In this document: positions 21,401 to 62,230 of the stretch, in pieces
Position numbering within the stretch: the stretch's first letter is position 1
Layout: each line of letters begins with the position of its first letter
Virus record (IMG/VR): IMGVR_UViG_3300014656_000022
Span: 9,544-73,543 of that record
Strand: one strand, 5' to 3'
Length of the DNA: 64,000 nucleotides
Origin: a virus
Lineage: Duplodnaviria > Caudoviricetes
The notes under the pieces: generated by a model
What the model was told of the DNA's origin: nothing
What the model saw: only the letters and a program-made list of their open reading frames with translations
The model's database searches: none
Made by a program: the position numbers and the translations under genes

Positions 21401-21414
21401 CCTGTATCTGTCAC
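15421..21414 (-). CDS. Baseplate hub-like protein with internal M23 peptidoglycan peptidase, 1997 aa
   Basis: M23 motifs ITSHY, HSGIDIA, VRAAADGEIV, YTVYKHM, IGLVGNTGYSAGAHLHFEIR (about 17800-18330); C-terminal hub-like GSLILMGNPKIRPYDIVYI...VEQVVHRFS; GTG start overlapping upstream TGA. Confidence 0.75.
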   Translation of the reverse strand: MTDTGTLKLNDLTFTVPPDQIHIERKSYNNFWQTLRTRSSQKLRSGFSEIRVHIVIYLVEKDLPKLTDFVSQIRVTPFVYVDNQFLRNSILGGNQETQMVLALQQLEIQKVGDSTDIIQLSLNTVWFNYQPYMRQWLYKRDLLSPIPVLDPSDSRAWRTLYLAEQARKSGNRELYIRTYQLANKTELSLTEFALFDRKRYQKVDADVKTLRTLINQLEDIEGGRSEWSGVAPDMAEELAKQAKKQGIPLKADDFGSTTSMGEDVNTDSVSKVITGLLSAREEELAGLDSLMNQSEDWSPIAIQDSTGKPTIVESKLGIDTLFKEPAEGVHTEPVQVLMKRTVPLNLEDAGFIPVGISISFDNTLARIPLLGHPYPTYQHIGSIDGVVSISLMTTHESSIKSISNFYSMYEDTARKFRRVPVGLRNVNVVNNLINACGLQEFILENISIDTVKGQPGTYSAVLTLIDNPVTSSTREQLVPGQSITSKGDVHRLLFKKLMSYIKFDKSAVTNENGRLSIKTRASIEADVPSFLSTDTEFSRLRFNQKADVYKVNGLQSKQDYMLWKTCMYLASKMGTTLSELWNVLNTNIGITGNKFSSVLGGLFSLFLLDNKDVIGVDVFQDDTYNVFVQSKGTQDDIAFLQKKGSNGESELSWSDKAFAELAEYGPGAFGNSALLGDSGLLETARQTPEILDLYVEATGPISGDRAKALEEIRSTFRKEHTPLLYDFLTAAFADWNDWINNFLLQLLRSSLIQLDQMKDIRDALNNFGVSSGGNAYPDFPMDGILDIIEAEYPTLNDSLVEMAAKQNLGLRNLSAAALIQPDFYLYNPAEIKGSIVDGSIIEAAKNAIQTSQGDVRLKATKSWLESVYEEKILGQQKKNRIRGDVVTRTWGTGLMQADQKLKQDARLEREDTKALELELQNRAEKDNGLIQPNDFDGEIIPSAVYARLQTGLGDLLPITIPAIELARDIYNITGAGRKQAQPLASPSAGACKHNMSLDCLNRQPESYYQPTELVKASEMPIWAWPVDVPRPTSKITSHYKEIRGGISSKPHSGIDIAHSLGAEETKKMQVRAAADGEIVFITKDFKQSEHTYREGDPLFKRNPNDKVGDKIGNKPIETTVEVHIRHPNGYYTVYKHMQWEPYIQRLSLLFHGGELGNESFAGQNPLPISQGEVIGLVGNTGYSAGAHLHFEIRKNNIEYTMDPELALQGFELKSLGPVNDIDPANESLLTRSIDQFEKEMINDQGYSLMRAYPTFKLYFIESDLGERKKYAFDDFYSYSQVVDIQVIQSSKIPADLVMITLTNISGVLSNRKFKGDANQERARDPGGKFAIEDPLKENNIASLMLQPGTQMQLRLGFNNNPQELETVINGVITDVQFSGAEDLVQITCQSFAIELAQNIYGDVKEFGGWYTKSGRTSDILENLIAAPEVAHFGRWELGEGSLGDTFRSLLTSRYTWSKQPQDDNIFAPTGNRGLLGLFDGGSVPFVMYNTTIWDVFQEMTYRHPGWISRPVPYEGEYGPRMTMFFGVPDQFYFARDPTTEEKSEAEQLKEQVANSKDETAKVAAEATDPNKEPSEATKNAVADARGGSAVAILRETDRRAKISQDLVRAESINKELLKIWTERNVRLYAKDRGIIKPFRSYHLASSTCNIIDNRISSTFWNTFNTVTLQYDDDGAEVNEETGQIEFDDAQTFTLMCDAGIPDEEKREIFAQYPNCVGWEMAKRYCTALLKESLKEGYRGSLILMGNPKIRPYDIVYIADEYNDMWGPVEVEQVVHRFSQQHGFVTEIIPAMCIHVNEIVTMATQDVMGLVAEAAMKGINMQSLPGIGATLMGGAGARMALGEVSKNIKGDTLTAGLVTAASHMGDVLSVVTAPIGGMGLSTLSMASSMSDSVDNSVGNPINTHGLLGTFIFRKLTSRSQLAHLFHYSPLVLQGKPLIGGLPTKRNDGSWIQGIGRWFKDANESTPLYLDHFYDTIDPNNWFAPQGSWWASNVEGRVK

Positions 21415-44306: not shown

Positions 44307-46388
44307 TTATCCGTTATCAGTTGGGAGCTTTCCCATAGCTTGACAACGTTGAATATATTTAGCAGCAGCAGTAGGTCCTTGACCTGGAGAAAAAAGTAGC
44401 TTGAGATATTGTTCTTCAATTTTTCCTAAATCCTCTGGAGTCACAACCTGCTCCTTTATCTCATCTTGTACTTGAGTAGGGTCATCTACTATTTCAGTTG
44501 GTGTTCTACTCATTCCATCACCGATTTTATTAACAATTCCCTGGAAGTCAACAAGTTCTGCAAGATTAATTGTTTCTGTATCTAGAACCTCGTCTGTAAG
44601 AGTAGCAAAATCTCTTTCTTTAACTTCCTTGTCATTCAGATTCTGAAGAATTGCTAAATGCATTTCCTTGGCTTTCCTAACCTGTTTGACACTCTCTACA
44701 AGCTTTTCTTTGAGAGTCTCAGTGTCTTTAAACATGGCCATATGCTCTTGTTTGAGAGTTTCGATTTCATCTCTCAATTCACCAATCTTTTCCTCGTTTT
44801 GAATAATTTCTTCTAGAAGTTTGTCTTCACAAACTGGGCTAAGAGCTAATTCTTCATTCACTAAGGCAAGAACTAAATTGTCTTTTCCAACCATTGTAGC
44901 AAGCCGCTTAAGAATACCCTGAAGTACTTTTAGTTCTTCGGCTTCAAAAACCGCTTCACCGTCCTTTTCAAAAGGCTTACCATCTTCGAGAGCTTCAATG
45001 AGCATATGCATAATTCTGCTATGCTGATAACTATCTTGAGTTGGCTGTTGAGTCTCATCTTTTGATTTGGTATCACATCCTAGCTTTTTAGCTTTTCTAG
45101 AGACACAAGCAAGAATTGTGCTTTTGTCTCCAGGACCTTTATATCGACCAATGAGTCTTCTTGCAGCAACTACATGAGCGCAATCAGGAACCGGAAAACT
45201 CTTATTTGGTCCACAGAAAGTTGACTTAGAGAGATCCTTTCGCTGCTTAGTAGAGAGTTTTGCATCCTCAATTTCCTTCAGAAATGAGTCCCGCACATCT
45301 TCGCTTTCAGGAGCTAATTCTCCATCAGTAATTGCTCCTTGGACTTCTGCCCATAGAAGTTCGTAGAATTGTTCCTCTTGTTCGTCTGTAAGAGTTTCAG
45401 CGTCCATGAGTACGGTTAAGATATCTTCTTGAGTTTCTTCTTGAGTTGAATCTTCAACAATAGTTTCATCTACTGGAGTTTCAACCTGATCTCCAACCTC
45501 TTGGGAGTTGTCAAGAGCGTCCATTAATCTCTCCTTAAATTGAGGGAATGAAGGTGCAACCTCATATACCCTACCAGTATTAGCAATTTCGATTTCATCT
45601 TTAATTCCGTTACAGTTTAACTGAAGAACCTTGCTATGTCTATCAGCTGGGAAATTTACTACTGAATATTCATCATAAATCAGGTCACCAGCAATAATGA
45701 AACAAGGAGCACCGTCATATATAGCTCCTGGTGTATGTTCGCATTTGCCAGATTCTGTCCAATCTTGTCTACAGGTAGAACAAATAGCTTGATTAGTAGT
45801 AGCTCCTACAGAGCCTGTTAGATAACGACCATCTAAGAACTTTGTAATAGCAGCTTGGTCAGTAATATTTGCTAGTATCTGAAGATATCCTAACCCTTCA
45901 TAGGTGCTATCACGGATAATTGAATCCCGTAAAAGAGAGCAAACAGTATCTACCGCCATTCCAAATGGCAATTTTCCTGCAATGAAGTCTTGTAGAAGAA
46001 CATCATTCAGAATGCCAATTTCTTTCCCTGCTCGATTCTTTATATGGATGCCTTTAACCAGGTCAAATTGATCTCTTACTACCCCAGAAGTATCTACATA
46101 AATAGAATCTATGATCCGCCCAATGGGATCACTGTGTTCCTGATGATGTACGAGAACTGGTTTGGCATAGTTCTCAATAAAGGTAGGTGCTCCCTTTTTC
46201 ATTCTGTCGGGGAGATAAAACCCATTATTTCTTGTGATAATTCCAGCATGAGTTGCAGCAATAGAAACTTGAAGTCCTTGAGGATGCATACTCATGGATG
46301 AATATGAACTTAGGTTATCATTCACCCGAGTCATACTCTCATCTGTAAACCTGAAAGTTACTAGATCGTTAATACGTAAGAAGTTCAC
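44307..46388 (-). CDS. Prohead protease fused to scaffold-like acidic/coiled-coil region
   Basis: AATHAG, PVLVHHQEHSDPIGRI, YLTGSVG, CSTC...CEH, EYSVVNFPAD; acidic linker; heptad-rich C-terminus; GTG start. Confidence 0.75.
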   Translation of the reverse strand: MNFLRINDLVTFRFTDESMTRVNDNLSSYSSMSMHPQGLQVSIAATHAGIITRNNGFYLPDRMKKGAPTFIENYAKPVLVHHQEHSDPIGRIIDSIYVDTSGVVRDQFDLVKGIHIKNRAGKEIGILNDVLLQDFIAGKLPFGMAVDTVCSLLRDSIIRDSTYEGLGYLQILANITDQAAITKFLDGRYLTGSVGATTNQAICSTCRQDWTESGKCEHTPGAIYDGAPCFIIAGDLIYDEYSVVNFPADRHSKVLQLNCNGIKDEIEIANTGRVYEVAPSFPQFKERLMDALDNSQEVGDQVETPVDETIVEDSTQEETQEDILTVLMDAETLTDEQEEQFYELLWAEVQGAITDGELAPESEDVRDSFLKEIEDAKLSTKQRKDLSKSTFCGPNKSFPVPDCAHVVAARRLIGRYKGPGDKSTILACVSRKAKKLGCDTKSKDETQQPTQDSYQHSRIMHMLIEALEDGKPFEKDGEAVFEAEELKVLQGILKRLATMVGKDNLVLALVNEELALSPVCEDKLLEEIIQNEEKIGELRDEIETLKQEHMAMFKDTETLKEKLVESVKQVRKAKEMHLAILQNLNDKEVKERDFATLTDEVLDTETINLAELVDFQGIVNKIGDGMSRTPTEIVDDPTQVQDEIKEQVVTPEDLGKIEEQYLKLLFSPGQGPTAAAKYIQRCQAMGKLPTDNG

Positions 46389-46421: not shown

Positions 46422-49400
46422 TTATTTACCTTTCAAACCGTTAGAACAGATTGCAAGGGCAGATAACTCAATTTTGTCTTCACTCCATCCTGGATGGTCC
46501 TGTTCTAGTCTTGTTTTTACTTTTTGAACATAATGTTCTAACTTAACTTTATTTTGAGTAGTTATATCTTGAAGAACATGATCGCAGGCTGTCTCTGCCT
46601 GAATTTCAAGTTGTTCTTCGCTCCAGTCTGGATGTTGGACTCTAAGTCTTGTTTTAGTTTTCATCACACACTTAACAAATTGAGCCTTCTTTGATTTAGG
46701 TCCAAGAGTAGACTTGGTCTTCTTATGTGCATCCTGGACACTGGTTTCCGTAGCTAAGAGGACACACCCACAATTTGCATGAAATGGAGGAATGTCATCT
46801 ATATCCATGAGACTTGGATTATATAGCTCCCTTGAACGAGCGAGACAATCGTCACAGGGTTCTGGAGTAGTATTCTCTAGTTTGAGACTTACTACTTCTG
46901 TATCTCTCCATCTAACTAGTTGACCAAAACCATATCCTTTTCGGACTTCGACATCTTCAATAAAAGCTGTCCTGTAACGCAATGCACTAAAAACAGACCT
47001 GGTATTTAGAGCTATATTACTAAGAGGCTCCAGATTATCTACCCTTTTTTGAAGAAGAGAAACAATGTCATTGGTTAGCTTGGTAACAAAATGATTTGCA
47101 CGCTCAGTAAAAATAGTTCTAGCATAAGCAGTTCTTTGAATAAATTCAGGTCCTACAGCTCCACCCTGATGCAAATACCCACTTCTAAATGCAACAACCT
47201 GCTCAGCAATGAGTTGCTGAATAGTTGTTTCCATCTGGGCTCTAATTAGTTGCCCGACCCAATCATGTTCTAGTTGTCCCTTGATTTGAACATGAGCTAT
47301 AGCTCCCTCTGTAATCAAATCGAACGTATTGGCTAAATACCCATCTCTAGACTTTGGCCTAGATGGTCTTGTTGTAACGACGTTCTTCTTTTGTTTTGCT
47401 TTAGCAATAGCAGCTTTTTGCTTCTCTAATTCTATGTCCTTTTCTTGGGTCTCTGTCTTTGCAGTTTGTATATCAGACTCGGTTGTAATGAGAGAACTGG
47501 ACCTAGCTACAGCCTTAGCGAGTGCGCTCCACGGCTCATCCAGACTTTGTATTAATAGTTTGGGTTCTTCGTAGAGTTTCCAGTTGGTTCTGTTCCATTC
47601 TGGAAATTCATCACCACCGTCTCTCTCAGCTTCAATGTCTTCTCTTGATGGGATACGAAGAGGTTCTAAACCACAACCCAGCCTTCTTGTTTCGTCAAGA
47701 GTAATAATGTTCTTATTAAATTGGTCAGCATAGTGAGCTTCCTTTTTAATTTGAACATCAATATCTATTTCTTTAAAGCGGAGAAAACATTTATTTTCCT
47801 CATTGAGAACATCATCTCCATATGTACTCTCTAATAGTAGCTCATTTATAACATAGGTGTTAAAGAAGGTTTCAAAGACTTGTTGATAATCCTTTACACT
47901 GTCGATCAGGTTTCTAGAAAGATTATCGCTAGTACTTCTGTTTACAGTATTCCCCTGGATCGTCACTTTTCCATTACGTCTTGTGATATAAAGATGATGA
48001 GGAACATTGTAACAATAGATACCACCAGAATATTCTTTACTAGTAATCATTTGTGATTGAACTAGTCTATGTTGAACACTGGTTCTTGGAGAAGAAATAT
48101 AGACTCTCCACATTGGGTTTTTACCCCACGCTGCTTGGTCTTGTTCTACAAGAACAACTTTAGCATTATATCCTAAGGATAATGCTAAAATTTGAACATC
48201 ATCTGCCAACCCCTTGCTAGACGTATAGTAAGTCTTAAATTTACCTAGACCTTCATCCCACCCATCTCCTATAACCAAGGCCTGTAGAAGAGCTTCTCTA
48301 GCCTTTTGAGGCCACTCTAAGGCAAATAAAGGTATCCGCTTGTTTTTTGATCCATGCGGTACGTTCTTTCTAAGAAAAGAATATAAAGTTTTACCGTATA
48401 TCTTAATGCCAGACTGATTACTTTTTTTACTCTTGATTTTACTATAAGAAAGTCCTATTCGATCAGCATTTTGACAAATTAGGTCTAAATTTGCCCCTTT
48501 ATTTTGAGATATAAGTGTTCGATAGAAACCCTTGTTACCGTTAGATTTATCTATACATCCCTCAGAAATAAAGTAACCTAAGAATTCTGCAAAATCTACA
48601 AGCTGGCACGAAATACTCTTGCAAGGACCACCTCTTTTCGCTTTAGAAGCCTTGATAAAAAATCTATCTTTAGTTAAATTTTTATCTTCAAGAGGAGCAC
48701 TTTCTAAGACATAAAACTCTGTTCCATATTTATTATCTAATAACTCTTTTGCTTCAATAATCTCCCAACTATCTCTCCACTTAGCCTTAACCCACATTCT
48801 GTGGTGAGGAGTTACTTGAATATCTAAATGCTGACCCTGAATATGAATCATTTCTCCAGTATAATCATTAGCATATTTATAGTTAGCAAAACGATATTCT
48901 ACTTTCCATATATCTGGATTGAAGACAGCTATTTTCTCTTTTGTGTGGTCGATTTCGTAATGATATTTCCACCCATTCTCTGTTAAAGTTTGAGTGTCAT
49001 CTGAATAACATTCGCCTTCTCCGAGATCTACACTAGAAATACCAAGACCAGCTATTACCCTTTGTTTAAAATGTTTGAGATACCCTTCAGCCCTGAGTGC
49101 TCTTCCTTCAGCCCCAATAGCTTTAATATCATGCCTTTCTGGGGTAACTATTCCTCCTTCTGTAGGCATACGTTGAATCTCTGCTTTTACTACATCAATC
49201 TCTTTATACCCATCTTCTGTATATCCTGCTGGAGACTCTGGAGTACCTACTTTGTACTGGAAAAGAGGAAATAAATGTTGATAAATGAGTAGCTCTAAAT
49301 TTTCCTCAATTTTGCGAAGAGCACGAATATCATCTAAAACCGGGACCAAAAGAGGTGTTCCGTAAAGGAAGCCATCTTTTCTATCGTGGTAGAAATGGAT

Positions 49401-49991
49401 TACATCCTCTGGTTTATAGGTTCGATATGATCCATCTGGCATATGTTGCCGCCATTTGGATACTTTATTCCCAACCAGTTGACATTCCATTGTTTCAGCA
49501 GGAACAGGAAAGTATGCTGCTACTGGCTCTAGCTCTTTATTTGTTTGTGGGAGAGTTCTAATTTTTCCTCCAGATGCCTTTGTCTTTCTCACTTTTAAGA
49601 GAAAAGCATTAGATTTAAGGATTAAAGAAGCTCCAACCGCTCTGAAAAGCATCTTAGTTGAAAGACCAGAAGCCTGTTCTGTTTGAGCTAAACGAGTCTT
49701 TATGTAAGTAATAGTTTGCAGATTGGGACCAACCATATCCCAACCCTCTTTAAACATGAGTGCTGTCTTCTTAGCTATTGCTTGTCTGACAAAGGCTTCT
49801 GTATCCAGCACCTTTCCTAATTCGACTAAGTCATATTCCGGAACCTGAAAGGCTGATCTTCCTGTTCCATAAAGAGAACTATATGAAAGGACAGGATTCT
49901 TTACTGCAGGAATAAGAACAGGTTTAGAAGTCCGGGGGATATTGACTTGAGGCTCAGGAATCTTCTCCTGAATCTTAACTGTATCTTCCAA
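46422..49991 (-). CDS. Portal protein with intein and C-terminal gpF-like extension
   Basis: DVIHFYHDR...GTPLLVPVLDDIRALRKIEE...PLFQYKVG; TTG start with gggagg RBS; PPFHANCGC near the C-terminus. Confidence 0.85.
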   Translation of the reverse strand: MEDTVKIQEKIPEPQVNIPRTSKPVLIPAVKNPVLSYSSLYGTGRSAFQVPEYDLVELGKVLDTEAFVRQAIAKKTALMFKEGWDMVGPNLQTITYIKTRLAQTEQASGLSTKMLFRAVGASLILKSNAFLLKVRKTKASGGKIRTLPQTNKELEPVAAYFPVPAETMECQLVGNKVSKWRQHMPDGSYRTYKPEDVIHFYHDRKDGFLYGTPLLVPVLDDIRALRKIEENLELLIYQHLFPLFQYKVGTPESPAGYTEDGYKEIDVVKAEIQRMPTEGGIVTPERHDIKAIGAEGRALRAEGYLKHFKQRVIAGLGISSVDLGEGECYSDDTQTLTENGWKYHYEIDHTKEKIAVFNPDIWKVEYRFANYKYANDYTGEMIHIQGQHLDIQVTPHHRMWVKAKWRDSWEIIEAKELLDNKYGTEFYVLESAPLEDKNLTKDRFFIKASKAKRGGPCKSISCQLVDFAEFLGYFISEGCIDKSNGNKGFYRTLISQNKGANLDLICQNADRIGLSYSKIKSKKSNQSGIKIYGKTLYSFLRKNVPHGSKNKRIPLFALEWPQKAREALLQALVIGDGWDEGLGKFKTYYTSSKGLADDVQILALSLGYNAKVVLVEQDQAAWGKNPMWRVYISSPRTSVQHRLVQSQMITSKEYSGGIYCYNVPHHLYITRRNGKVTIQGNTVNRSTSDNLSRNLIDSVKDYQQVFETFFNTYVINELLLESTYGDDVLNEENKCFLRFKEIDIDVQIKKEAHYADQFNKNIITLDETRRLGCGLEPLRIPSREDIEAERDGGDEFPEWNRTNWKLYEEPKLLIQSLDEPWSALAKAVARSSSLITTESDIQTAKTETQEKDIELEKQKAAIAKAKQKKNVVTTRPSRPKSRDGYLANTFDLITEGAIAHVQIKGQLEHDWVGQLIRAQMETTIQQLIAEQVVAFRSGYLHQGGAVGPEFIQRTAYARTIFTERANHFVTKLTNDIVSLLQKRVDNLEPLSNIALNTRSVFSALRYRTAFIEDVEVRKGYGFGQLVRWRDTEVVSLKLENTTPEPCDDCLARSRELYNPSLMDIDDIPPFHANCGCVLLATETSVQDAHKKTKSTLGPKSKKAQFVKCVMKTKTRLRVQHPDWSEEQLEIQAETACDHVLQDITTQNKVKLEHYVQKVKTRLEQDHPGWSEDKIELSALAICSNGLKGK
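47949..49010 (-). mobile_element. Intein with LAGLIDADG homing endonuclease (354 aa) in portal
   Basis: GEGE|CYSDDTQTLT ... IYCYNVPHHLYITRRNGKVTIQGN|TVNRS; motifs FLGYFISEG and LLQALVIGDG. Confidence 0.92.
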
Positions 49992-53079: not shown

Positions 53080-56000
53080 CTAAATATTCTTTCTCTGTGG
53101 TTTCTTTATCCTAGGTCTCAGTCCAAACTTCATTTGAGCATCTCTTTCAGCTTGAGCAAGAGACCTAATTTTTGGTCTGGGCTGGTCATGTCCAAATCCA
53201 GGCCAATACCATAACCCAACCGAAGTTTCTCTGACAAGATGAGCACCAGGCATCTCCTGGTTGACACCCAACAAAGAAGTCTTCTCTATTCCAACCGTTC
53301 TACTCATTTCTGGCTTTGAGTTTGGTTTCTGTCTTTCATCTGATTTCATAGTTAAAGATATGTCCTGATCAGGAAGTGATTTCTCACCAAATTGACCAGA
53401 GAAAGCTATATCAGCAGAATACTTCGGTTTTCCAAATGGTGTCAACTCCATAGTGAAAGCAACTACTGAAAGCATGAGCCCGTCAAGTGTATGATCTCCA
53501 ATAGATTCATCTAGTGCTCCATATACAGGTACTCCTGCTGTAGTTTTCCTTTGAATAATGTATCCAGATAGTTGTCTCTCTAACTCTTCATCTGAATCAG
53601 AGAACTTAATATCTCCTGATTCAAACCTTCTAACAGTGCTTTCTACTAACCAAGCTTTTGCTGGTTTCTTTATTGGTTGCTTAGTAAATAAATCTCTTGT
53701 TTCTATTGTTCCACCAAACTCATATTTATGAACAATATCTTTCAATCTTGCATCAGGATGGTTCCTTCCTTTATTTCCATCAGCAGCACTATCATATCCA
53801 TATTTACGAAGGACTTCCCATTGTGTCGATCCATATCCTGAGTCGATATAGATAGCAATAGGTCTCCAAATCCTGTTTAGTTCAGCTATCTTTTGACAAG
53901 CAGCTAACTGAGTCCACCCTACCTTAGAAACAATACATCTGTCTACTACTTGAAAGATATTTCTAACAGGATTAAATCCAAGAACAACTATTGATGTGCC
54001 AATCTTAGTATCATTCCAGTCAACCCCAATAGTATATTTCCATCCTTGGGTGTAAGGGATACTTCCATATCTATAAGGAGACTTTGCGTGTTGGATATAG
54101 GCATTCTGGAATACACCTTGTTCTTGTTCACCAAATTCTGCTAGAGCCTCATGGATGTATCCAAGCTCTGTAAGTTGCTCCTTATACATCTGTTCCATTT
54201 CTGTATTCCACATTGGGTTAACAGATGAGGGGAAATAAAACTCTTTCCACAATGTAGAGAAACAAGTCTGAAAGAACTTCTCCCGCTTTCCAGAAGGAGT
54301 AGAACTCATCCAAACAGATGCATTCGGGTAGTTTGTAATGATTGATAGGGCCGCATCCATATCTGCAACCGCTAGATAATCTGCTTCGTCAAATACTAAG
54401 AGGTCAGCATGTTGTCCGCGAACAGCAGCAGCATTTCCACCAGATTTGGTTCCTGCAGTATTATGAAGAACTATACCATTAGCAACAAAATTATTTGTAC
54501 CGTCTCCAACAGAAAGATCGTAAGTAGTAGCTTTACCAATAGGTTCTATGCTCCGTATTTTATTGTAGGAGATGTCTGCAACGTCAACATCCCGTGTGTT
54601 TTTACAAGCTTCCAAACACTTCTCATAACAAATACCTTTAGCTGAAAGGTCTACTAAATCGAGCAGCTTTCTCGTATAGGCTTTTGATTTTATACATAGT
54701 TTATATAAATCATATCTTGAATGAATAACTCTCTGGTTTGTTGCAATCGGAGTATCTTTTCCCGCTTGTTTCTTACAGCGGATATGAGCTTTAATCCCAA
54801 AAGAGTTCAATAGATTTCTTACCCCAAAAACGAGTTCCTTGCTAATACTGCAAAAACCAGCAGTTCCATCTGATTGCAAAAACCCATCAGTTTCTAATAA
54901 GCCTTTTAAAAGACCTAATCGAATAGAAGAAGACTCATTAATTAATACTTGGGGAATAAACTTATTAATAGAAGTTTTATCATTAAGGCCATACTTGTAA
55001 ATCAATGCAGTTAGTTCTGTGTATGGTTTGTCCTGACATCTTCGATGTGGTACATTCATCCTCTTTCGAAGAGTATATTCTTTACTACCAGTTACTGAAT
55101 GAATTTGACTCCTATAACCAATCTTTAATTCAGCTAATGTATCTTCAAATTGCTTTTGAATCAGTGGATTCTTAGAAGTAAATCGTGGCCCTCCATCTGC
55201 AAGAGTCTTTTTGGTTATATTCCCATCTCCAAGAATTAATCCTAATAAGTAAGCTAATCTATCAGGCTGAGCACTAGAGGGAGGAAACTTAAAGTCATTA
55301 GCTATAGCTACATGATCTCCAACTGTTAACTCTTTCAAAGCTATCCATTTCTGGTTCTTTGTCCAAAAAGGATGATCTTCTGAGACTGTGACTTCATGTC
55401 CACTATTTAAGACTACTCTATAAACATCTTTATAGTTTGGAGCATAGACATATGTTACGGGAAGAAAAGTAAGATTATTATCCTCTTGTTTTGAAAGCAC
55501 TCGATCTTTTAAGGTAACGTCTTCTATATTTACTAATCCACGAGAAGTTACTATCTGTGTCCCAGCAACACAAGAGAAGCCCTTAATAATAGACTTATTA
55601 TTTAGCTCCATAGTATACATTGGAGCCTTAACATAACGACTCAGAGCATTTGTAGTTCCGGGATTTGATTTGATTAATTGCTCAAGACGTTTGAAAACTA
55701 AGTCAACCTGTGACTGATATGGAGCGATAACTATTACATCAAAGCCATCGTCCTGGGTCTTCCCTGGCTTAGTAAACATATTGTATAGGATAGCTACTGC
55801 TAGAGCTTCACTCTTACCAATTTGCCGACCCGCGCGGAATACCTTCCTCCGTGCCTGACACCGGGTCATGAGAGCCTGATATGGCCTATGATACCTGGAC
55901 TGGCCAAGAATACTCTCACCAGGATGGTTACCTACCCACTCATTGTACTCTTCGGGGTTCTTTCTTTTCCAAATTTCCCCGTCTGGGTCCAGACAATGCC

Positions 56001-56211
56001 AATCAAGTGTCTCTGCAGCCCATCTAACAGGATCTAATACAGATAAAGCTGTATCCTGTTCTGAAGTTTCTCCAAATAAGGAAAGCTGTTCATAGTCTGG
56101 TATGCCAGTACATTTGATTTTAAACTTTTGGCCTGCAACTAATTTGTGTTTGCTTTTATATCCTTTAATACAATTGAGACAGGTCTTGTCACACTGGGTA
56201 AGGTCTAACAC
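53080..56211 (-). CDS. terL: Terminase large subunit with intein
   Basis: Walker A AGRQIGKS, Walker B LLVFDEAD, motif MSSTP, nuclease IGVDWN and DHTLDG. Confidence 0.95.
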   Translation of the reverse strand: MLDLTQCDKTCLNCIKGYKSKHKLVAGQKFKIKCTGIPDYEQLSLFGETSEQDTALSVLDPVRWAAETLDWHCLDPDGEIWKRKNPEEYNEWVGNHPGESILGQSRYHRPYQALMTRCQARRKVFRAGRQIGKSEALAVAILYNMFTKPGKTQDDGFDVIVIAPYQSQVDLVFKRLEQLIKSNPGTTNALSRYVKAPMYTMELNNKSIIKGFSCVAGTQIVTSRGLVNIEDVTLKDRVLSKQEDNNLTFLPVTYVYAPNYKDVYRVVLNSGHEVTVSEDHPFWTKNQKWIALKELTVGDHVAIANDFKFPPSSAQPDRLAYLLGLILGDGNITKKTLADGGPRFTSKNPLIQKQFEDTLAELKIGYRSQIHSVTGSKEYTLRKRMNVPHRRCQDKPYTELTALIYKYGLNDKTSINKFIPQVLINESSSIRLGLLKGLLETDGFLQSDGTAGFCSISKELVFGVRNLLNSFGIKAHIRCKKQAGKDTPIATNQRVIHSRYDLYKLCIKSKAYTRKLLDLVDLSAKGICYEKCLEACKNTRDVDVADISYNKIRSIEPIGKATTYDLSVGDGTNNFVANGIVLHNTAGTKSGGNAAAVRGQHADLLVFDEADYLAVADMDAALSIITNYPNASVWMSSTPSGKREKFFQTCFSTLWKEFYFPSSVNPMWNTEMEQMYKEQLTELGYIHEALAEFGEQEQGVFQNAYIQHAKSPYRYGSIPYTQGWKYTIGVDWNDTKIGTSIVVLGFNPVRNIFQVVDRCIVSKVGWTQLAACQKIAELNRIWRPIAIYIDSGYGSTQWEVLRKYGYDSAADGNKGRNHPDARLKDIVHKYEFGGTIETRDLFTKQPIKKPAKAWLVESTVRRFESGDIKFSDSDEELERQLSGYIIQRKTTAGVPVYGALDESIGDHTLDGLMLSVVAFTMELTPFGKPKYSADIAFSGQFGEKSLPDQDISLTMKSDERQKPNSKPEMSRTVGIEKTSLLGVNQEMPGAHLVRETSVGLWYWPGFGHDQPRPKIRSLAQAERDAQMKFGLRPRIKKPQRKNI
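54460..55575 (-). mobile_element. Intein with LAGLIDADG homing endonuclease (about 372 aa) in terL
   Basis: KGF|SCVAGTQIV ... TYDLSVGDGTNNFVANGIVLHN|TAGTK; motifs LLGLILGDG and LLKGLLETDG; the N-junction could be Ser 55575 or Cys 55572. Confidence 0.92.
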
Positions 56212-56571
56212 TTATCTAAACATTCCTCTAATTCTATGAAATGGTTTATTTGCAAGCATTTTAGCAGCATACATCCGAGCTGGTCTGTTTAGACCACCAG
56301 CCATACCTCCCAGCATTGCTCCAGTAGCCATCCCACCCATTATGCTAGCGTTATCAGAAAATGCTCCATATTGTGCTCCAACCCCAGCTCCTATTAATGC
56401 CCCCATTCCTGCTGGAGTCTTAGCAACCATTCTAGCTAACCCAAGATGTTGTAAGCCTACAGCTCCTGCTGCAGTTTGCATTGGCCCAGCCATTCCAAGA
56501 GCACCGTGTCCAATCCCACCTAAATAGTTACCAAAACCAGTTACTCCTCTTCCTAACAAACCTGGCATCAT
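56212..56571 (-). CDS. Glycine-zipper hydrophobic protein, 119 aa
   Basis: GALIGAGVGAQYGA and GGMATGAMLGGMAGG GxxxG arrays. Confidence 0.65.
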   Translation of the reverse strand: MMPGLLGRGVTGFGNYLGGIGHGALGMAGPMQTAAGAVGLQHLGLARMVAKTPAGMGALIGAGVGAQYGAFSDNASIMGGMATGAMLGGMAGGLNRPARMYAAKMLANKPFHRIRGMFR

Positions 56572-56577
56572 TTCCTC

Positions 56578-57387
56578 CTAACGATGATAGAGACTTCCTT
56601 CGGCACCTAAAGCTGACCTACCGTTAATATGCGAATTCTGAAGAGCCATAGCACTTCGTTGTCTCATTGTAGCACCTGTATTAAATGGGTCTATATTACC
56701 CCCACCTAACTCTACTTTTCTCAATTGCTTCCTATATTGTCTAGCTCCCTCCCCAAACATATAGGTTCCAGCTCCAATTAAAGCTGCAGGAGCTAAGACA
56801 CCAGTAGCTGTAGCAAGTCCAGGAAGAAATTTCATAGCAGCAGAGAAAGCAAACCACTCAATAGCTGCACCTGCTCCACCTTTCACTGCCCCAAGAGTCC
56901 CACCTTCTTGGTAACCTTCATAAGCTGCATGAGCAGTAAATGCAACAGGAAGCAATCTTCCAGCTATTCCTAGCTTCCCTACTCTCGATAGGACACTCTT
57001 CATCCCCACTCTTCCAATATTCTTGGGAAGTAGCTCTCCCGCATGTTCACCGATTACTCTCGCATTAGACATAAATGCAGCTCTTTCAGCTCTGAGAGTT
57101 GCCAGGTCTCCTTTCAATCCAAGGATGCCAGTATATGACCCTGGCTTAGGAATCATAGAAGAATAGACTTTCCTTGCTTGTGCCATTCCGGCAGCTTCGT
57201 GAGCTGGAACCTTAACTTTGAGCCAATCAGGCATCTTTGATTTACCAGCGATGCCAATACCAAATGACTCAGCAAATCCTTGTGCTCCAGCTAAACCAGG
57301 CCCTGTTGATGTTAAGGCAGTATAGAACTTTGTAGAAGCTGACCGAGCACCCTGCCATTTCCCTCGAATACTATCCATATCAACCAT
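56578..57387 (-). CDS. Gly/Ala-rich hydrophobic protein, 269 aa
   Basis: Multiple hydrophobic segments (GGTLGAVKGGAGAA, GVLAPAALIGAGTY). Confidence 0.65.
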   Translation of the reverse strand: MVDMDSIRGKWQGARSASTKFYTALTSTGPGLAGAQGFAESFGIGIAGKSKMPDWLKVKVPAHEAAGMAQARKVYSSMIPKPGSYTGILGLKGDLATLRAERAAFMSNARVIGEHAGELLPKNIGRVGMKSVLSRVGKLGIAGRLLPVAFTAHAAYEGYQEGGTLGAVKGGAGAAIEWFAFSAAMKFLPGLATATGVLAPAALIGAGTYMFGEGARQYRKQLRKVELGGGNIDPFNTGATMRQRSAMALQNSHINGRSALGAEGSLYHR

Positions 57388-58048
57388 TATGTCTTCCCTG
57401 ATGGAGTCCTTGTGTCAATCCATATGTACTGGTCATGAAAGCTCTATGCATTGGTCCCGCCATTTGAGGAAAGGTTCCTGTCTGACCCATTGGAGAGATA
57501 CCTCCTCCTAATTGTCTGGACCTCGCTTGTCTATTATAACTAACCTGTAATTGCATACCAGCTGTTGGATCAGAAAGAGCATTAGCTCTATCATATATCC
57601 CCCCCATTGTAAAAGTGTTTTGTGGAAGTCCACCAACAGCTCCTATTTGATTAGCAGCTGTATTCCTCCAATTTACCCCAAAGGCCCCGAGGAGAGATCC
57701 ACCTGTATATAGTAGACCTGCCCCACCTACTACACCTGGAATTCCAACAGCAGTTGTGAGACCCCCTGGAATAGCTTTACCTATATTTAATCCAGCTTTA
57801 GCTACGTCCCTAGTTAATCCCCCCATAAATTTAGAAGTCCCAGGAAACTTTCCTATTAACATTCCAGCTCCTGCTCCTAGAGTTCCTCCAATGAGAGCAC
57901 CTCTCGTAGCTCCTCCCCAGAAGGTATCTCCAGATTGGACAGCTCCAGATATACCTCCTCCCCAAAAACCAAGAGAAGCTCCCGTAGCAGCTCCTGCTGA
58001 TCCAGGATAACGTTTACCAAATTTGAGTATCGAATCTATAAACGCCAT
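57380..58048 (-). CDS. Glycine-zipper hydrophobic protein, 222 aa
   Basis: GAATGASLGFWGGGISGA and GALIGGTLGAGAG arrays. Confidence 0.65.
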   Translation of the reverse strand: MAFIDSILKFGKRYPGSAGAATGASLGFWGGGISGAVQSGDTFWGGATRGALIGGTLGAGAGMLIGKFPGTSKFMGGLTRDVAKAGLNIGKAIPGGLTTAVGIPGVVGGAGLLYTGGSLLGAFGVNWRNTAANQIGAVGGLPQNTFTMGGIYDRANALSDPTAGMQLQVSYNRQARSRQLGGGISPMGQTGTFPQMAGPMHRAFMTSTYGLTQGLHQGRHNG

Positions 58049-58071: not shown

Positions 58072-61000
58072 TTAACTACCTGGTATCTTACCAGTCTGTT
58101 TAGTATGTCTAGTTCCAGGACGAACTCCATGTTGCCAAGCTTGCTGAACTCCATCTGAATGAGCCTGTTGCCATTTCTGCTGTCTCTGAACTTGTTTTGG
58201 AAGAGGAGGGGGCCCAGATTTTTTTGGCAAAGGAGGTGGTTGAGATTTGAGTCTAATTCCTAAGGCTTCCGAATATTGTTGTTTGAGAATTTCCCTTTTT
58301 GTAGTTAAGTCCTCTATTGTATGTACAGGTAACCTCTCAGCAATTTTCTGACCAGACTTGAGAGGAGCAAGTCTTTCTGTCAAAGAAGTAAGTCCTTTTT
58401 CTGCTCTCACGAGCTGAGTTAGGCTAGTTGTACTCCCAGAATAATATCTGGATTCTATAGCGGCAGCAAGATACTCTTCAAAAGCATAAGGGTTTCCTGC
58501 ATAACCTTTTCCAGCACCAAGAAGCCACTCTCCTACTTTTTCTGTAGCCTGAGCTTGAGTTCTAATTGTTTCACGAAGACCTAATTCAGAAACAGCCATA
58601 TGGAAACTCTCATGAGCACGAGTCCCTGCCATAACCTGTTCAAATGGTACCCCTAGAACCTTTGCTTGCTGTTGCACTCCTAACTCACTAACGAATCCAA
58701 TACCTTGTAATTTTGAAGCATGAGCTGCTGTTATCTCTTCCCGCATTTTTTCAAAGGCGCTAGTAAAAGCTTTTCTTTCTGTCTGAGGAAGTCCGAGAAC
58801 AGCTTTTTCTGCTTGAGACCTAAACGCTCCCCAGAACCCGGTTAATTCTGTTCTAGCAATTTGTGCGCCTGCTGCTCGCTTCCCATAACTCTTAGCAAAT
58901 ACTTCTCCAAGAATCTTTGGAACTTCAATAAATCCACTACCAAAACCGGTCATTTGTCTACGTTGTCGACCAGCCAGACCTCGATGCTGGAACCCTTCTA
59001 TGGTATTATAGCTGTCATCCTTACCAGAGAAGGCATTTACCAATAGAGCAATTCCACCAAGAGTTATACCTCCAGCAAGAACCCCCTTCCAGGGAATTCG
59101 TACCCCTTGAGAAACAATAGCTCTTTCTCCAGCTCCAGTGATAGCTTTAGCTGGAGTTACGCCTGCTCCAGATTTTGCAATAGCCTCTACAGTTCTCTTA
59201 GATACGACACTTGCATTACTGGCTGCCTCAGCAGCAAATGTATTTATAGCAGGCCTAGGAGCCCAAGAACTAAAGCCACTTCTAATCTCAGGAGGTCTAT
59301 ATACCCTCGATAATCTCTTTTTGACCACGTTTTGTCGAAGTACGGTAGCACCAGTTCTTCTCTCTTCTATTATCCCAGGTACTCTAGAAGCTAATGGACT
59401 ATCTAATCCGGCTCTATTAGGTGCTCCTATAGGATTATTGCTGTCTAAAACAGAGAAAGTGATAGTTGTACGCCCACTAATAAATTTTGCTAAACGAGGA
59501 TGCTGCCGAGCTAGCAATTCTTCATATGTTTGTTCTAGAGAACGTAGAGATTGTTCCGACAAAGTTTCTCTCGAAGTCTCCCATCCTGTCCACCGTCCCC
59601 AACTTGGACCACCTCTCTGAATCCACCGCTTCGTAGGGACATTGGTAAGCTCGGCTTTTCCCGCAATTGTCTCAAGGAGAATGGGTTCTATTCCTTGTTG
59701 CCCAGAAAAAGGGATAGTTGTCTTTCTTGGAAGATTAATCCCAGCAGTTAGGGACTGGGATAACCCTAATTTCGTTTCTACAAAGACATTAGTGCTCTTG
59801 AAGCCTTTGACATCATATAATGCATTAATAGGATATCCAAGACTTTTAGCTGATTTCGTTACTTCTGCAACACGTAAGCCCCTATTAGTTCTTAGAGAAG
59901 ACCTAGCATTACAAGATTCCATCACTATCTTGTAACCTTGCTGTTCGGGTAAATGCTTTCCAATCCATGCTGCTGAAGCTATCTCATATTTACCAGTTGC
60001 AGGATTATAAATTCCAAACCCAGTTCCTCCCACACCGTGTCCAGAAAAGAAAATATTCCGCCTACCTGATTCTTGAACAGTTCTTATGGCTTCTGGCCAA
60101 GACGAAACTACTCTAGTCTCTACACCTAGCTTTTCTAAAGCAACAGAACTCCCTTTGTCTTGCCAATAGAACTCAGGGTCTCCAACTAAGTTGAGCCAAT
60201 CAGCCCCAACTTTTAAATGAGTGGTATAACTAGTTACTTGAGCAATTCGACTAGCTTGAGAAATGGCAGGCGCAGAAGGTAATACTCCTCCACTCAATAA
60301 ACTAAGAGAAAGACCAATATTTAGAGACCAAGACTTGAGAAGACCAATCCATCCACTACCAAAGTCCGTATTCCGCTGGCGTAGCCCCCCGGCTATTCCG
60401 TCATGTCGTAAACCCTCGATAACATTGAAGTTATCGTCTCTTCCTGAAAAACTGTTAATTATCAGGGGAATAGAGAGAAGGGCTCCAGCCCCCATTCCTG
60501 CCTTGAATTTATTCTTTCGAAGAAACTTCCCTGTCTTTTCTAGGAGAGACCAATCTCTAACGGTAGAATAGGTTTCTTTTATCCCGCCTGGAGGAAGAGT
60601 TTTGAGTCCATATTCTTGTAGTAAGTTTCTTAGTCCAGTAGAGAACTCTGTAGTTATTCCTGATTCTGATGCTTGAAGGACGAGGTTTTCTAATGGTCTA
60701 CCCGCCTTTGCCTGAGAAAGTAGCTTGTCTCTAAGAGAGAGTCTTCCCCACCGTTTAACGAGAGCTGTTTCCGCCTCTGAAGAAAGATTCCAGTTGAATC
60801 CTGCTATTTCTCTGGTTGTTTGGATATCTACAGAGGATAGGTGAGCACCTACTGGAGCTTGTCCAGTTAGAATTTCATAAATAGTTGATTGTTTCCACCC
60901 AGAAAATTTATATCCCTCTGTAGCAAGAAATCTGGCTTGAGCTGCCACCGATGCACCAGATTTGCGTACTTCTGCTGCATTTTGATAATAGGACCTTGCT

Positions 61001-61506
61001 TGTTCCCAGAGTTTTGGCTCAACGAGGGGCTTGTACTTCTCCTGACCGATAATGCCAGCCAATCTGACAGATGTCTCATGTCCAATGTCTCTAATCTTGA
61101 GACTTCCAAAGGCTTCTTGATATTGCTTCTCTAATCCATACTTCTCTGCCCGCGTGAGAAGCATAGGAATATCAAATCCACGAGTTCTGGTTTCTCCTAG
61201 GACCTGCGGAGCTATTTCATATCCAATATTCCATCCAGCTACAGTAGACCCTTTAGCACCCTTCAGGACGCCCAAAAATTGGCTGAGAGCCTCTCTTTCA
61301 GTTAGGGTAGGGGGGTAGGTAGCCTTCAGTGGATTCCAGACGTTACGAGCCGACCAGGAAGACATCTTTGTCCCTGGGACTGGATGGGCAGATAGGGTCT
61401 TCTCTCCATAGGAAATGGAGTAGATTGAGGAATAGTGACCTGAGAGAGACCCAGCCTCTATATCGAATACGAAGGGCCTATTCACCTGGTCCTTCCCACT
61501 CCGCAT
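58072..61506 (-). CDS. Multidomain protein: DEDDh exonuclease + caspase/CHAT-like protease + HExxH metallopeptidase
   Basis: VFDIE / GWNI...GFD / AHLSSVD; IFFSGHG...VMESCN; AHESFH...FEEYLA; two TM-like helices each followed by a 35-aa repeat. Confidence 0.75.
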   Translation of the reverse strand: MRSGKDQVNRPFVFDIEAGSLSGHYSSIYSISYGEKTLSAHPVPGTKMSSWSARNVWNPLKATYPPTLTEREALSQFLGVLKGAKGSTVAGWNIGYEIAPQVLGETRTRGFDIPMLLTRAEKYGLEKQYQEAFGSLKIRDIGHETSVRLAGIIGQEKYKPLVEPKLWEQARSYYQNAAEVRKSGASVAAQARFLATEGYKFSGWKQSTIYEILTGQAPVGAHLSSVDIQTTREIAGFNWNLSSEAETALVKRWGRLSLRDKLLSQAKAGRPLENLVLQASESGITTEFSTGLRNLLQEYGLKTLPPGGIKETYSTVRDWSLLEKTGKFLRKNKFKAGMGAGALLSIPLIINSFSGRDDNFNVIEGLRHDGIAGGLRQRNTDFGSGWIGLLKSWSLNIGLSLSLLSGGVLPSAPAISQASRIAQVTSYTTHLKVGADWLNLVGDPEFYWQDKGSSVALEKLGVETRVVSSWPEAIRTVQESGRRNIFFSGHGVGGTGFGIYNPATGKYEIASAAWIGKHLPEQQGYKIVMESCNARSSLRTNRGLRVAEVTKSAKSLGYPINALYDVKGFKSTNVFVETKLGLSQSLTAGINLPRKTTIPFSGQQGIEPILLETIAGKAELTNVPTKRWIQRGGPSWGRWTGWETSRETLSEQSLRSLEQTYEELLARQHPRLAKFISGRTTITFSVLDSNNPIGAPNRAGLDSPLASRVPGIIEERRTGATVLRQNVVKKRLSRVYRPPEIRSGFSSWAPRPAINTFAAEAASNASVVSKRTVEAIAKSGAGVTPAKAITGAGERAIVSQGVRIPWKGVLAGGITLGGIALLVNAFSGKDDSYNTIEGFQHRGLAGRQRRQMTGFGSGFIEVPKILGEVFAKSYGKRAAGAQIARTELTGFWGAFRSQAEKAVLGLPQTERKAFTSAFEKMREEITAAHASKLQGIGFVSELGVQQQAKVLGVPFEQVMAGTRAHESFHMAVSELGLRETIRTQAQATEKVGEWLLGAGKGYAGNPYAFEEYLAAAIESRYYSGSTTSLTQLVRAEKGLTSLTERLAPLKSGQKIAERLPVHTIEDLTTKREILKQQYSEALGIRLKSQPPPLPKKSGPPPLPKQVQRQQKWQQAHSDGVQQAWQHGVRPGTRHTKQTGKIPGS
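58927..60450 (-). repeat. Two copies of a 35-aa module (60346-60450 and 58927-59031)
   Basis: FSGRDDNFNVIEGLRHDGIAGGLRQRNTDFGSGWI vs FSGKDDSYNTIEGFQHRGLAGRQRRQMTGFGSGFI, 20/35 identical by hand. Confidence 0.9.
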
Positions 61507-62230
61507 CGATTATATCCTGAGGAGAAAGAGCTGGTTGACCTCCTGAATCCATCGTTCTCTGTAATTCTCTCAGTTTTGCATGAAGTAGGGCCTGTTGAGA
61601 TGAAGTGTCAGAATCATCTCTCTGTTTGAGAGCAGCTTCCTTCTTATACTTCTCTTGTCTATCCCCGACCATTAGTTTGATTATCTTTGATTTACGGGCA
61701 AGAAGCTTTTCTCTTATCTCTATGAAAGGAGAAATCTGTTTCTGAACTACTGGGAGACCTTCTCTATTTACCCCCACGGTTTGGTCAATAATCATCTCCG
61801 CATTTCCTGGTTTCGCGAGGGACATATTAATTCTCATCAATCTAATCTCTATCTCAGCTAATTCATTCACATATCCAATTTCAGTAAAGTTCTCTGGATC
61901 TACATCATATTCCTCAAAGTATCTGATTGCCCATTCCTTGAGAAGCTGACTTTCTAAAATGCAAACTTTTCCTACGGGAGATTTCCCTATCTGAGAAAGA
62001 GGACATCTTTCAGCGAAGGGACAGAAATCTGTTCCTCCACAAAATATTGGCACCATAGCAAAGGAACCAGTAGATAGCTTCTGAAGATGCTTCTGAATAC
62101 GAAGAGCTTCCTTTTCGGTGAGCTGCAACTCGTACTCATCCAAATCATGCTTCAAAAAACGGAGATAGGTCTTCTTAGTTAACTTCTCTGATATCTCAAC
62201 CTTCTCAATAGGGACTAACTCTTTACTCAT
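61478..62230 (-). CDS. Hypothetical protein with Cys cluster, possible terminase small subunit
   Basis: C-x5-C-x5-C-x12-C cluster then helical region; near the operon start upstream of terL; terS call is positional only. Confidence 0.4.
   Translation of the reverse strand: MSKELVPIEKVEISEKLTKKTYLRFLKHDLDEYELQLTEKEALRIQKHLQKLSTGSFAMVPIFCGGTDFCPFAERCPLSQIGKSPVGKVCILESQLLKEWAIRYFEEYDVDPENFTEIGYVNELAEIEIRLMRINMSLAKPGNAEMIIDQTVGVNREGLPVVQKQISPFIEIREKLLARKSKIIKLMVGDRQEKYKKEAALKQRDDSDTSSQQALLHAKLRELQRTMDSGGQPALSPQDIIDAEWEGPGE

Follow-up and report, generated by a model that had tools for sequence, protein, structure and literature searches.

A phage polyvalent protein with a new kind of architecture in a jumbo-type myovirus: an N-terminal DEDDh exonuclease and exchangeable cassettes set behind a repeated junction module

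Polyvalent proteins are phage-encoded chains that combine several catalytic activities in variable architectures and are encoded beside virion genes; those with peptidase, kinase and nuclease domains are predicted to be packaged and injected into the host, where they would serve takeover or counter-defence (Iyer, Burroughs, Anand, de Souza and Aravind, 2017, PMC5512222). In phage N4, gp50-gp52 constitute an experimentally defined ejection cassette, in which gp51 and gp52 behave as membrane proteins, while gp50 is stored as beads on a string (PMC13434306). In this cassette, as in gp14-gp16 of T7, the head stores one very large, loosely folded protein of several domains, whose gene lies next to those of small hydrophobic membrane-active proteins. 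Here, these systems are compared with a gene from a 64,000-nt stretch of viral DNA (positions 9,544 to 73,543 of the IMG/VR record IMGVR_UViG_3300014656_000022), hereafter called the window. The gene (58072..61506, minus strand; defined by the list of open reading frames, ORFs, and their translations) comprises an intact ORF of 1,144 aa (P0001), which an initial annotation had read as a polyvalent protein with exonuclease, caspase-like protease and zinc peptidase motifs. Judging from its sequence and that of its relatives, the product is a polyvalent protein whose architecture is of a new type, and it is probably, although far from certainly, packaged into the virion and ejected as an array of effectors.

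The designation as a polyvalent protein stands, since at least two unrelated catalytic domains occur in one chain, the architecture varies among relatives and the phage gene lies near virion genes, as in the proteins of Iyer et al. (2017). However, the Pfam models of two domains of those proteins, MPTase-PolyVal and LPD23, give no match here, and the fixed frame of the present family, with an N-terminal DEDDh exonuclease, a 35-aa module before each cassette and a basic tail, is not found described in the available text of that study. The family also differs by its fixed genomic slot and its near-total avoidance of cysteine. Like the N4 and T7 ejection proteins, the polyvalent protein and three of its neighbours are free, or nearly free, of cysteine. 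There is, however, no sequence similarity to these ejection cassettes, which belong to podoviruses rather than to a myovirus, and ejection is a prediction here; moreover, the cargo would consist of hydrolases instead of an RNA polymerase or a lytic transglycosylase.

An exhaustive HMMER search over 1.84 billion representatives recovers 324 metagenomic relatives of the polyvalent protein, and the family counts given in the following refer mostly to the best 150 of these 324. Scans of P0001 as a single sequence against Pfam, PHROGs, NCBIfam and PDB return nothing significant (the Pfam scan of the whole protein is empty), and a word-index homologue search finds only the protein itself and one low-complexity match. 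Mapped onto the query, the relatives split the protein into an N-domain, a doubled short module, a middle cassette, a C cassette and a basic tail. The plan of the family is an exonuclease, followed by one to seven variable cassettes, each placed after a 35-residue junction module, and finally the tail. Of 100 exonucleases, 98 are found in the first slot (slot 0), and the N-domain (aa 10-270) is common to approximately 95 of the best 150 relatives. When the proteins are cut at the modules, 509 segments are obtained, which cluster under coverage limits into at least 115 sequence communities, with 81 singletons; most of these sequence-distinct cassette types, found in just 150 proteins, match no known family. 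A kinase cassette is present in 58 proteins and an SNase cassette in about 47, and these, as well as a cassette with an HExxH motif (30/150), occur in varying slots. Compared across related phages, the cassettes vary widely on a constant frame of exonuclease, modules and tail. The latter (aa 1086-1144; 58075..58251, minus strand) comprises a proline-rich linker with two copies of PPPLPK, located at aa 1090 and 1099, and a conserved basic C-terminus, with 10 Lys and Arg versus 1 Asp or Glu in the segment. A hidden Markov model (HMM) of the tail matches 103 of the 150 family members as well as the relatives in three viral contigs (L002-L004), but none of the three small Gly-rich proteins encoded next to the polyvalent gene.

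The N-domain (60697..61479, minus strand) is soundly assigned by alignment and profiles as a DEDDh 3'-5' exonuclease of the DnaQ/PolB-exo-like type. The motifs listed in the initial annotation are all in place, with ExoI formed by a DxE motif (DIE at aa 15, 61464; D15 and E17), ExoII by a PolB-like GWNI...GFD block (GWNI at aa 91, FD at aa 111; N93 and D112) and ExoIII by an Hx4D motif (AHLSSVD at aa 221; H222 and D227). An alignment of 40 sequences shows no variation at D15, E17, G91, N93 and D112, while H222 and D227 reach a conservation of at least 90%. Three independently composed profiles match 9mrd, with E-values of 5.5e-6 (A1), 4.6e-4 (A2) and 1.7e-5 (A6), and 9mrc is also matched by N-domain profiles. 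Weaker matches, mediated by the GWNI...GFD block, are obtained with the exonuclease of T4 PolB (1noy, E 1.1e-4) and with archaeal PolB exonuclease domains, and further weak ones with Cas2-DEDDh (8fyc, E 0.01) and DnaQ (8h18, E 0.03). Some relatives reach the Pfam models DNA_pol_B_exo1/exo2/RNase_H_2 on their own at E<=1e-3. Thus, the DEDDh assignment is upheld by the conservation of the catalytic residues and by profiles that reach solved DEDDh, DnaQ and PolB-exo structures. The N-domain shares its three motifs with DnaQ-like DEDDh enzymes (TREX/RNase T type) and with PolB exonucleases (profile E 5.5e-6 to 1e-4), but differs from both by a 19-residue insert between N93 and D112 and by a helical insert of approximately 100 residues between ExoII and ExoIII. 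By contrast to the PolB exonucleases, it is fused to junction modules, with no polymerase attached.

The first junction module spans aa 328-397 (60316..60525, minus strand) and is composed of a Gly/Ala-rich hydrophobic helix (336-354) and the core FSGRDDNFNVIEGLRHDGIAGGLRQRNTDFGSGW; the second spans aa 802-869 (58900..59103, minus strand), with a hydrophobic helix (808-826) and the core FSGKDDSYNTIEGFQHRGLAGRQRRQMTGFGSGF. Both were delineated by the repeat and by an HMM. The two copies align over aa 339-391 and 812-864 with a score of 134, compared with 30 +/- 5 for shuffles, which bears out the repeated unit of hydrophobic helix and 35-aa module that had been noticed on first reading. An HMM built from the two copies detects 405 modules in 144 of the 150 proteins, with one to seven modules per protein, and yields the core consensus [FI]SGKDDxYNTIEGLxHGGxAxxxRxxxTDFGSGW. 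Within the core, the Asn is conserved to 95%, two Gly to 94% each, the Arg to 96% and the Phe-Gly-Ser triplet to 99, 96 and 98%, while the Ile-Glu-Gly sequence reaches 85, 83 and 94%. A Gly/Ala-rich hydrophobic helix precedes approximately 35-40% of the modules, including both modules of P0001. No Pfam or PHROG model covers the junction module.

The two copies within the gene are 49% identical as protein and 55% as DNA; the same codon is used at only 10 of the 26 identical residues, and no identical run exceeds 13 nt. The protein sequence is therefore conserved, while DNA and codons are not, indicating that selection acts on the module peptide; the low DNA identity and the short identical run also argue that the module is neither a recent duplication nor a site of DNA recombination. 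Between family members, 47.7% of the internal ends of high-scoring segment pairs, at which sequence similarity stops, lie no more than 10 aa from a module core, compared with 13.6% for random positions. Since similarity stops at the cores, the modules mark the boundaries of cassettes that assort independently.

A second feature of the whole family is the near-absence of cysteine. Only 26 of the 168,626 residues in the 150 members are Cys (0.015%), and 133 of these proteins contain none. In this phage the terL product, the portal, the protease/scaffold protein and a 606-aa protein have 1.35-1.7% Cys, and the three Gly-rich neighbours as well as a 1,479-aa RNA-polymerase-like ORF have 0 Cys. The ejected proteins of known systems are likewise devoid of it, with 0 Cys in the 747 and 1,318 aa of T7 gp15 and gp16 and in the 3,500, 644 and 150 aa of N4 gp50, gp51 and gp52; the cytoplasmic enzymes of T7 and N4 contain 1.1-2.7%. 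Cysteine is not discussed in the account of the N4 ejection cassette (PMC13434306). The near-absence of Cys could provide a simple indicator, requiring nothing but sequence, by which ejected proteins are proposed in uncultured phages; in the window it also flags the three Gly-rich proteins and the 1,479-aa ORF. The latter (21411-25850, minus strand) is read as a single-chain RNA polymerase with two barrels, and because it is Cys-free like the virion RNA polymerase of N4 (0 in 3,500 aa), it may be a polymerase that is packaged into the virion and ejected. A YonO-like RNA polymerase has been reported in a review for Bacillus phage 0305phi8-36 (PMC7824862).

The distribution of cysteine also bears on whether the protein leaves the infected cell at all. 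It could be a late enzyme that is not packaged and never delivered to a new host, but acts in the infected cell, either by trimming DNA ends beside the terminase or by degrading host nucleic acids. Such a role is consistent with a gene that adjoins terL and a gp112-like gene for a possible small terminase, and with the exonuclease being the only universally conserved enzyme of the family. It would, however, provide no reason for an avoidance of Cys that is approximately 100-fold stronger than in the phage's own terminase, portal and protease. Moreover, a kinase, an SNase and dozens of unrelated cassettes that swap on one frame fit conflict effectors and not packaging, and 0305phi8-36 and Moorella phage MTATph1 package their DNA without a polyvalent protein. 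We therefore regard an enzyme confined to the producing cell as very unlikely.

In a background that excludes cysteine, a lone Cys that is kept points straight at a catalytic residue to be tested. This is the situation in the middle cassette (aa 398-801; 59104..60315, minus strand), a candidate thiol hydrolase defined by comparison with one relative. Cys532 (59913-59911) is the only Cys in the 1,144 residues of P0001 and aligns with the only Cys in the 1,806 residues of P0037, which at 33% identity is the sole relative of the cassette, so that the cassette is present in 2 of 150 members. In the clustering, the community holding the middle cassette is chained via the SNase segment of P0037, with P0037 itself as the only true relative. 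The FFSGHG (aa 486, 60051) and VMESC (aa 528) motifs are found where the initial annotation had placed them, and lie in the two blocks best conserved with P0037, I.F..HG..GTGF.I and GY.I.MESCNA.S.L.TN.G; H490-G491 (60039-60034) and C532, which in P0001 are 42 residues apart, are conserved in P0037. As Cys532 is retained and aligned in a family that almost excludes cysteine, it is very likely the catalytic nucleophile, and the cassette is very likely a thiol-dependent enzyme using this residue. In clan CD the catalytic His, usually as His-Gly, precedes the Cys, and each ends a beta strand, with 33-56 residues between them. A clan-CD-like protease is therefore the leading, although unproven, candidate for the cassette, on the basis of the order of His before Cys, the His-Gly pair and the 42-residue spacing. 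The more specific claim of a caspase or CHAT protease is not supported: the clan-CD Pfam models PF11713 (C80), PF14252 (DUF4347), PF00656 (C14) and PF12770 (CHAT) find no match in this genome at E<=10, and the AlphaFold model, built from an alignment of two sequences, has a mean pLDDT of 30 and shows only a strand followed by His490 and a strand followed by Cys532, making it unusable for this question. The pattern, the spacing and the unique Cys favour a thiol enzyme only, and the gene is better seen as coding for a polyvalent protein than for a caspase placed among morphogenesis genes. A search for short relatives sharing the His/Cys core (aa 440-575) finds nothing. Look-alikes proposed by a language model, namely DUF4347 (0.82), Peptidase_C80 (0.75) and LPD23, stay unconfirmed, since the scores of the first two are too low to be meaningful and the Pfam models gave no match. 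A second rare cassette of approximately 720-755 aa, shared by P0008 and P0052, similarly keeps one aligned Cys (aa 576 and 583, respectively) within the motif E[IF]NCLS[FY], and may represent another thiol enzyme.

The C cassette (aa 870-1085; 58252..58899, minus strand), a candidate metallohydrolase identified by family search and modelling, is more widespread, with 32 copies in the 30 proteins when an iterative search is restricted to its core. As initially annotated, it contains HESFH at aa 965 (58614; H965, E966 and H969) and a pair of glutamates at 1010/1011 (58479-58474). The HExxH motif is present in 31 of the 32 copies, with the consensus TIxHERxHQ, and is followed after 24-53 aa (40-53 in all but one) by [ED]E[YFW] in 23 copies, i.e. 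in those aligned that far. The apparent replacement of the catalytic Glu by Gly in three relatives results from misaligned HGDxHxxN loops of kinases. This conservation leaves no doubt that the HExxH...EE motif is functional, and our best guess for the cassette is a metal-dependent hydrolase. Its assignment to the zincins is supported by the motif, but no match to a zincin fold or profile was obtained. An AlphaFold model (pLDDT 69 overall, but 87-92 in the core, approximately aa 941-1025) places HExxH on a helix (955-974) and E1010/E1011 on another (1008-1023). However, this model consists of helices throughout and shows no strand ahead of the one with HExxH, so that a fold of the zincin type is not recovered; the zincin core is defined by a three-stranded sheet packed on the active-site helix (PMC5512222). 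The zincin Pfam models PF18818 (MPTase-PolyVal), PF13699 and PF06114 (M78) find no match in this genome at E<=10, the A6 profile matches no peptidase in PDB, and searches with the model by Foldseek (PDB and BFVD) and VIA-align retrieve no peptidase, the VIA-align rows covering only the first 78 residues, which are of low confidence.

The presence of two putative hydrolase cassettes in one chain raises the question of how the junctions are used. One scenario is a self-processing polyprotein resembling the MARTX toxins, in which either the Cys532/His490 cassette or the one with HExxH would cleave at the junctions, in the capsid or after ejection, and thereby free the enzymes. MARTX and the large clostridial toxins (Peptidase_C80) also combine an effector array with an internal His...Cys domain, and here a predicted hydrophobic strand with xHG is followed, over 42 residues, by a predicted strand with xxC, reminiscent of the autoprocessing domains of clan CD. 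The junctions are highly conserved and lie exactly between the cassettes, and autoprocessing by the MPTase domain has been proposed for polyvalent proteins by Iyer et al. (PMC5512222). Yet neither a clan-CD nor a zincin profile matches; C80 in particular gives no match and only the low language-model similarity of 0.75. Above all, the Cys cassette is present in 2/150 and the HExxH cassette in 30/150 members, while 144/150 carry junction modules, so that a protease acting in cis cannot be the general reader of the junctions, and we regard self-processing as quite unlikely. The small number of members with either putative protease cassette, approximately one-fifth, also leaves nothing in support of the alternative role as a maturation protease for internal virion proteins that had been suggested initially.

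Instead, our favoured guess is that the junction module acts as a docking or processing signal read by a partner in trans, such as the prohead protease, since 35 conserved residues exceed what a protease site needs. The obvious candidate reader would be the putative prohead protease/scaffold protein encoded by a 693-aa gene after the portal gene (44307..46388, minus strand), which is homologous to gp123 of 0305phi8-36 (protease/scaffold, E 3e-17) and to CDS0006 of Moorella phage MTATph1. A precedent is provided by the capsid-targeting sequences of T4 and the propeptides of giant-phage ejection proteins, which are cut by the prohead protease after Glu (LxE, AxE, SxE; PMC5694885). In those systems, short conserved peptides direct proteins into the prohead and are cut after Glu; the likeness consists in the conserved Ile-Glu-Gly of the junction core. 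By contrast to the T4 sequences, the junction module is internal, is repeated up to seven times and, at approximately 35 aa, extends far beyond the need of a cleavage site, and the protease here is related to gp123, which in 0305phi8-36 is annotated as being of the HK97 gp4 / P2 gpO type. If the proteins are ejected, the module might serve as a natural tag by which foreign proteins are loaded into phage heads, an extension of the idea of the T4 capsid-targeting sequence. A bolder proposal, which we consider improbable, is that the module, as a self-contained peptide signal conserved in protein sequence among hundreds of uncultured large phages, serves as a universal cargo adaptor of a new kind that loads any following cassette into the capsid and allows its release by cleavage at or near Asn-Thr-Ile-Glu-Gly. 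If true, nature would have provided a plug-and-play device with which any protein could be delivered into bacteria. In this phage the array would moreover contain a clan-CD-like cysteine protease of its own and so be a phage counterpart of the autoprocessing MARTX arrays. Experiments would be most worthwhile on the junction module and the cysteine rule.

The polyvalent gene is located in a tightly packed operon of co-directional genes, in the order 84-aa gene, 250-aa gene, polyvalent gene, three small genes, terL, genes of 139, 275 and 606 aa, and portal. The initial description of the gene as lying upstream of terL is thus correct with respect to the operon, but not as immediate adjacency, since the three small genes intervene (57380-58048, 56578-57387 and 56212-56571). 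Their products of 222, 269 and 119 aa (together 56212..58048, minus strand) were recognized by composition as Gly-rich (15-24% Gly), Cys-free and weakly hydrophobic, and may be partners in ejection or in forming a channel; at its C-terminus, the 269-aa protein is similar to gp115 of 0305phi8-36 (E 4e-4). On the other side, the 250-aa gene (61478..62230, minus strand) is, by sequence comparison, a homologue of gp112 of 0305phi8-36 (E 3e-20). Its product matches no family and has coiled-coil-like ends and a cluster of four Cys (at 63, 64, 70 and 76, with one more elsewhere), and its position suggests a role like that of a small terminase. In 0305phi8-36, gp112 is followed by the small genes gp113-116 and then by terL. 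All four small proteins are Cys-free, and three of them (gp113, gp114 and gp116) have been found in the virion by mass spectrometry. As 0305phi8-36 has no polyvalent gene and gp112 stands directly before gp113-116, the polyvalent gene appears as an extra gene inserted into a block of genes for small virion proteins.

The same order of gp112-like gene, polyvalent gene, small proteins and terL is found in the viral contigs L002-L004, in which the flanking genes are 54-57% identical (gp112-like, 54-56%), whereas the polyvalent gene shares only the N-domain and the modules, at 30-39%. Another 33 viral contigs, of 16.5-199 kb, were retrieved by searching for the module core as a degenerate DNA pattern, each with exactly one module-bearing ORF. 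A gp112-like gene upstream and/or terL downstream is present in 27 of the 33, that is in all with flanking sequence and without exception, and the gp112-like gene is upstream in 18.

The company of small hydrophobic proteins also allows for a polyvalent protein that is mainly a structural ejection or pilot protein, in which units of helix and module would build, together with the Gly-rich neighbours, a conduit for DNA across the envelope, while the enzymes are accessory. Channels of this kind are formed by N4 gp51/gp52 and T7 gp14-16, encoded beside a large ejected protein (PMC13434306), and both modules of P0001, as well as others of the family, have the hydrophobic helix, with Cys-free, Gly-rich hydrophobic proteins encoded by the adjoining genes. 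However, approximately 60-65% of the modules have no helix, and the hydropathy of those present (1.4-1.8) is borderline for a membrane span. If the spans alternated, each enzyme cassette would also end up across the membrane from the next. Furthermore, 0305phi8-36 has the small proteins only, so that any conduit does not need the polyvalent protein. A primarily structural function therefore seems unlikely to us.

We prefer the virion-delivered effector array, for which the late-operon position, the virion neighbours, the cargo resembling conflict effectors and the hypervariable cassettes on a fixed frame agree. The protein would be made late, at the same time as the products of the head and packaging genes. 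Inside the capsid it would be kept loosely folded, like beads on a string, beside the three small Gly-rich hydrophobic proteins, and it would then pass through the tail into the host together with the DNA. There, the modules would act independently: the DEDDh exonuclease may trim nucleic acids, either of the host or linked to defence, from their 3' ends, a putative thiol-dependent hydrolase would use His490/Cys532, and a putative metal-dependent hydrolase the HExxH motif and Glu. Exonuclease, junction modules and basic tail would form the constant frame, on which the cassettes are exchanged, presumably under pressure from host defence. The initial suggestion of an injected host-takeover or anti-defence effector fits the evidence.

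Several observations weigh against such delivery. The capsid proteins of N4 and 0305phi8-36 also contain 0 Cys, and since some purely structural virion proteins are thus Cys-free, a low Cys content is a safer sign of a virion or extracytoplasmic protein than of an ejected one. The folds of two among the three enzyme modules are putative, the clan-CD and zincin Pfam models give no match, and the N-terminal exonuclease, encoded beside terL, could serve DNA-end processing in packaging. Finally, no relative exists among 50,697 deposited phage records, so that no known virion proteome applies directly. If the proteins are indeed ejected, the family would represent a large unexplored catalogue of phage effectors that act within seconds of the onset of infection.

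The window covers the right-hand part, 64 kb, of a record of 73.5 kb with a CheckV completeness of 39%, from which a full genome of probably about 190 kb can be estimated. The record includes a gene for a tail sheath and one for a capsid protein that shares 32-35% identity with its counterparts in three jumbo myoviruses (Bacillus phage 0305phi8-36, Acinetobacter phage ME3 and Moorella phage MTATph1); by these genes, the phage is a contractile-tailed, jumbo-type myovirus. Near-identical DNA is found in groundwater metagenomes of at least three studies. The start codon of the polyvalent gene (ATG, 61506) is preceded by AGGA 9-12 nt upstream (8-nt spacer), and the gene shares 29 nt with the end of its upstream neighbour. 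In the public annotation, the gene call (P0002, 1,097 aa) begins at Met48 of the ORF and is too short, since this start deletes the ExoI motif, which is conserved in relatives; with ExoI cut off, automated annotation would overlook the exonuclease. Scans for promoters and terminators give counts equal to the shuffled expectation. A strain-level swap of cassettes was looked for, but the metagenome runs X3 and X4 carry the same gene at >99% identity, their lower word share reflecting fragmented contigs. Six single-nucleotide polymorphisms, four of them non-synonymous, are seen, each resting on a single low-depth contig. In a groundwater metatranscriptome run from 2025 (X7), three short contigs are identical to 60934-61245 (N-domain), 61829-62056 (gp112-like gene) and 57778-57901 (222-aa gene); as DNA carry-over is possible and only three small contigs are concerned, they are insufficient to claim transcription. 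As determined by sequence comparison, terL (53080..56211, minus strand; 1,043 aa) carries an intein with a LAGLIDADG endonuclease (approximately aa 213-585), which is lacking in the terL genes of L002-L004 (661-685 aa). The portal gene (46422-49991, minus strand) is also unusually long (1,189 aa), with a LAGLIDADG_3 match at aa 567-634 and PHROG matches typical of intein-bearing genes, and probably carries a second intein or a homing endonuclease.

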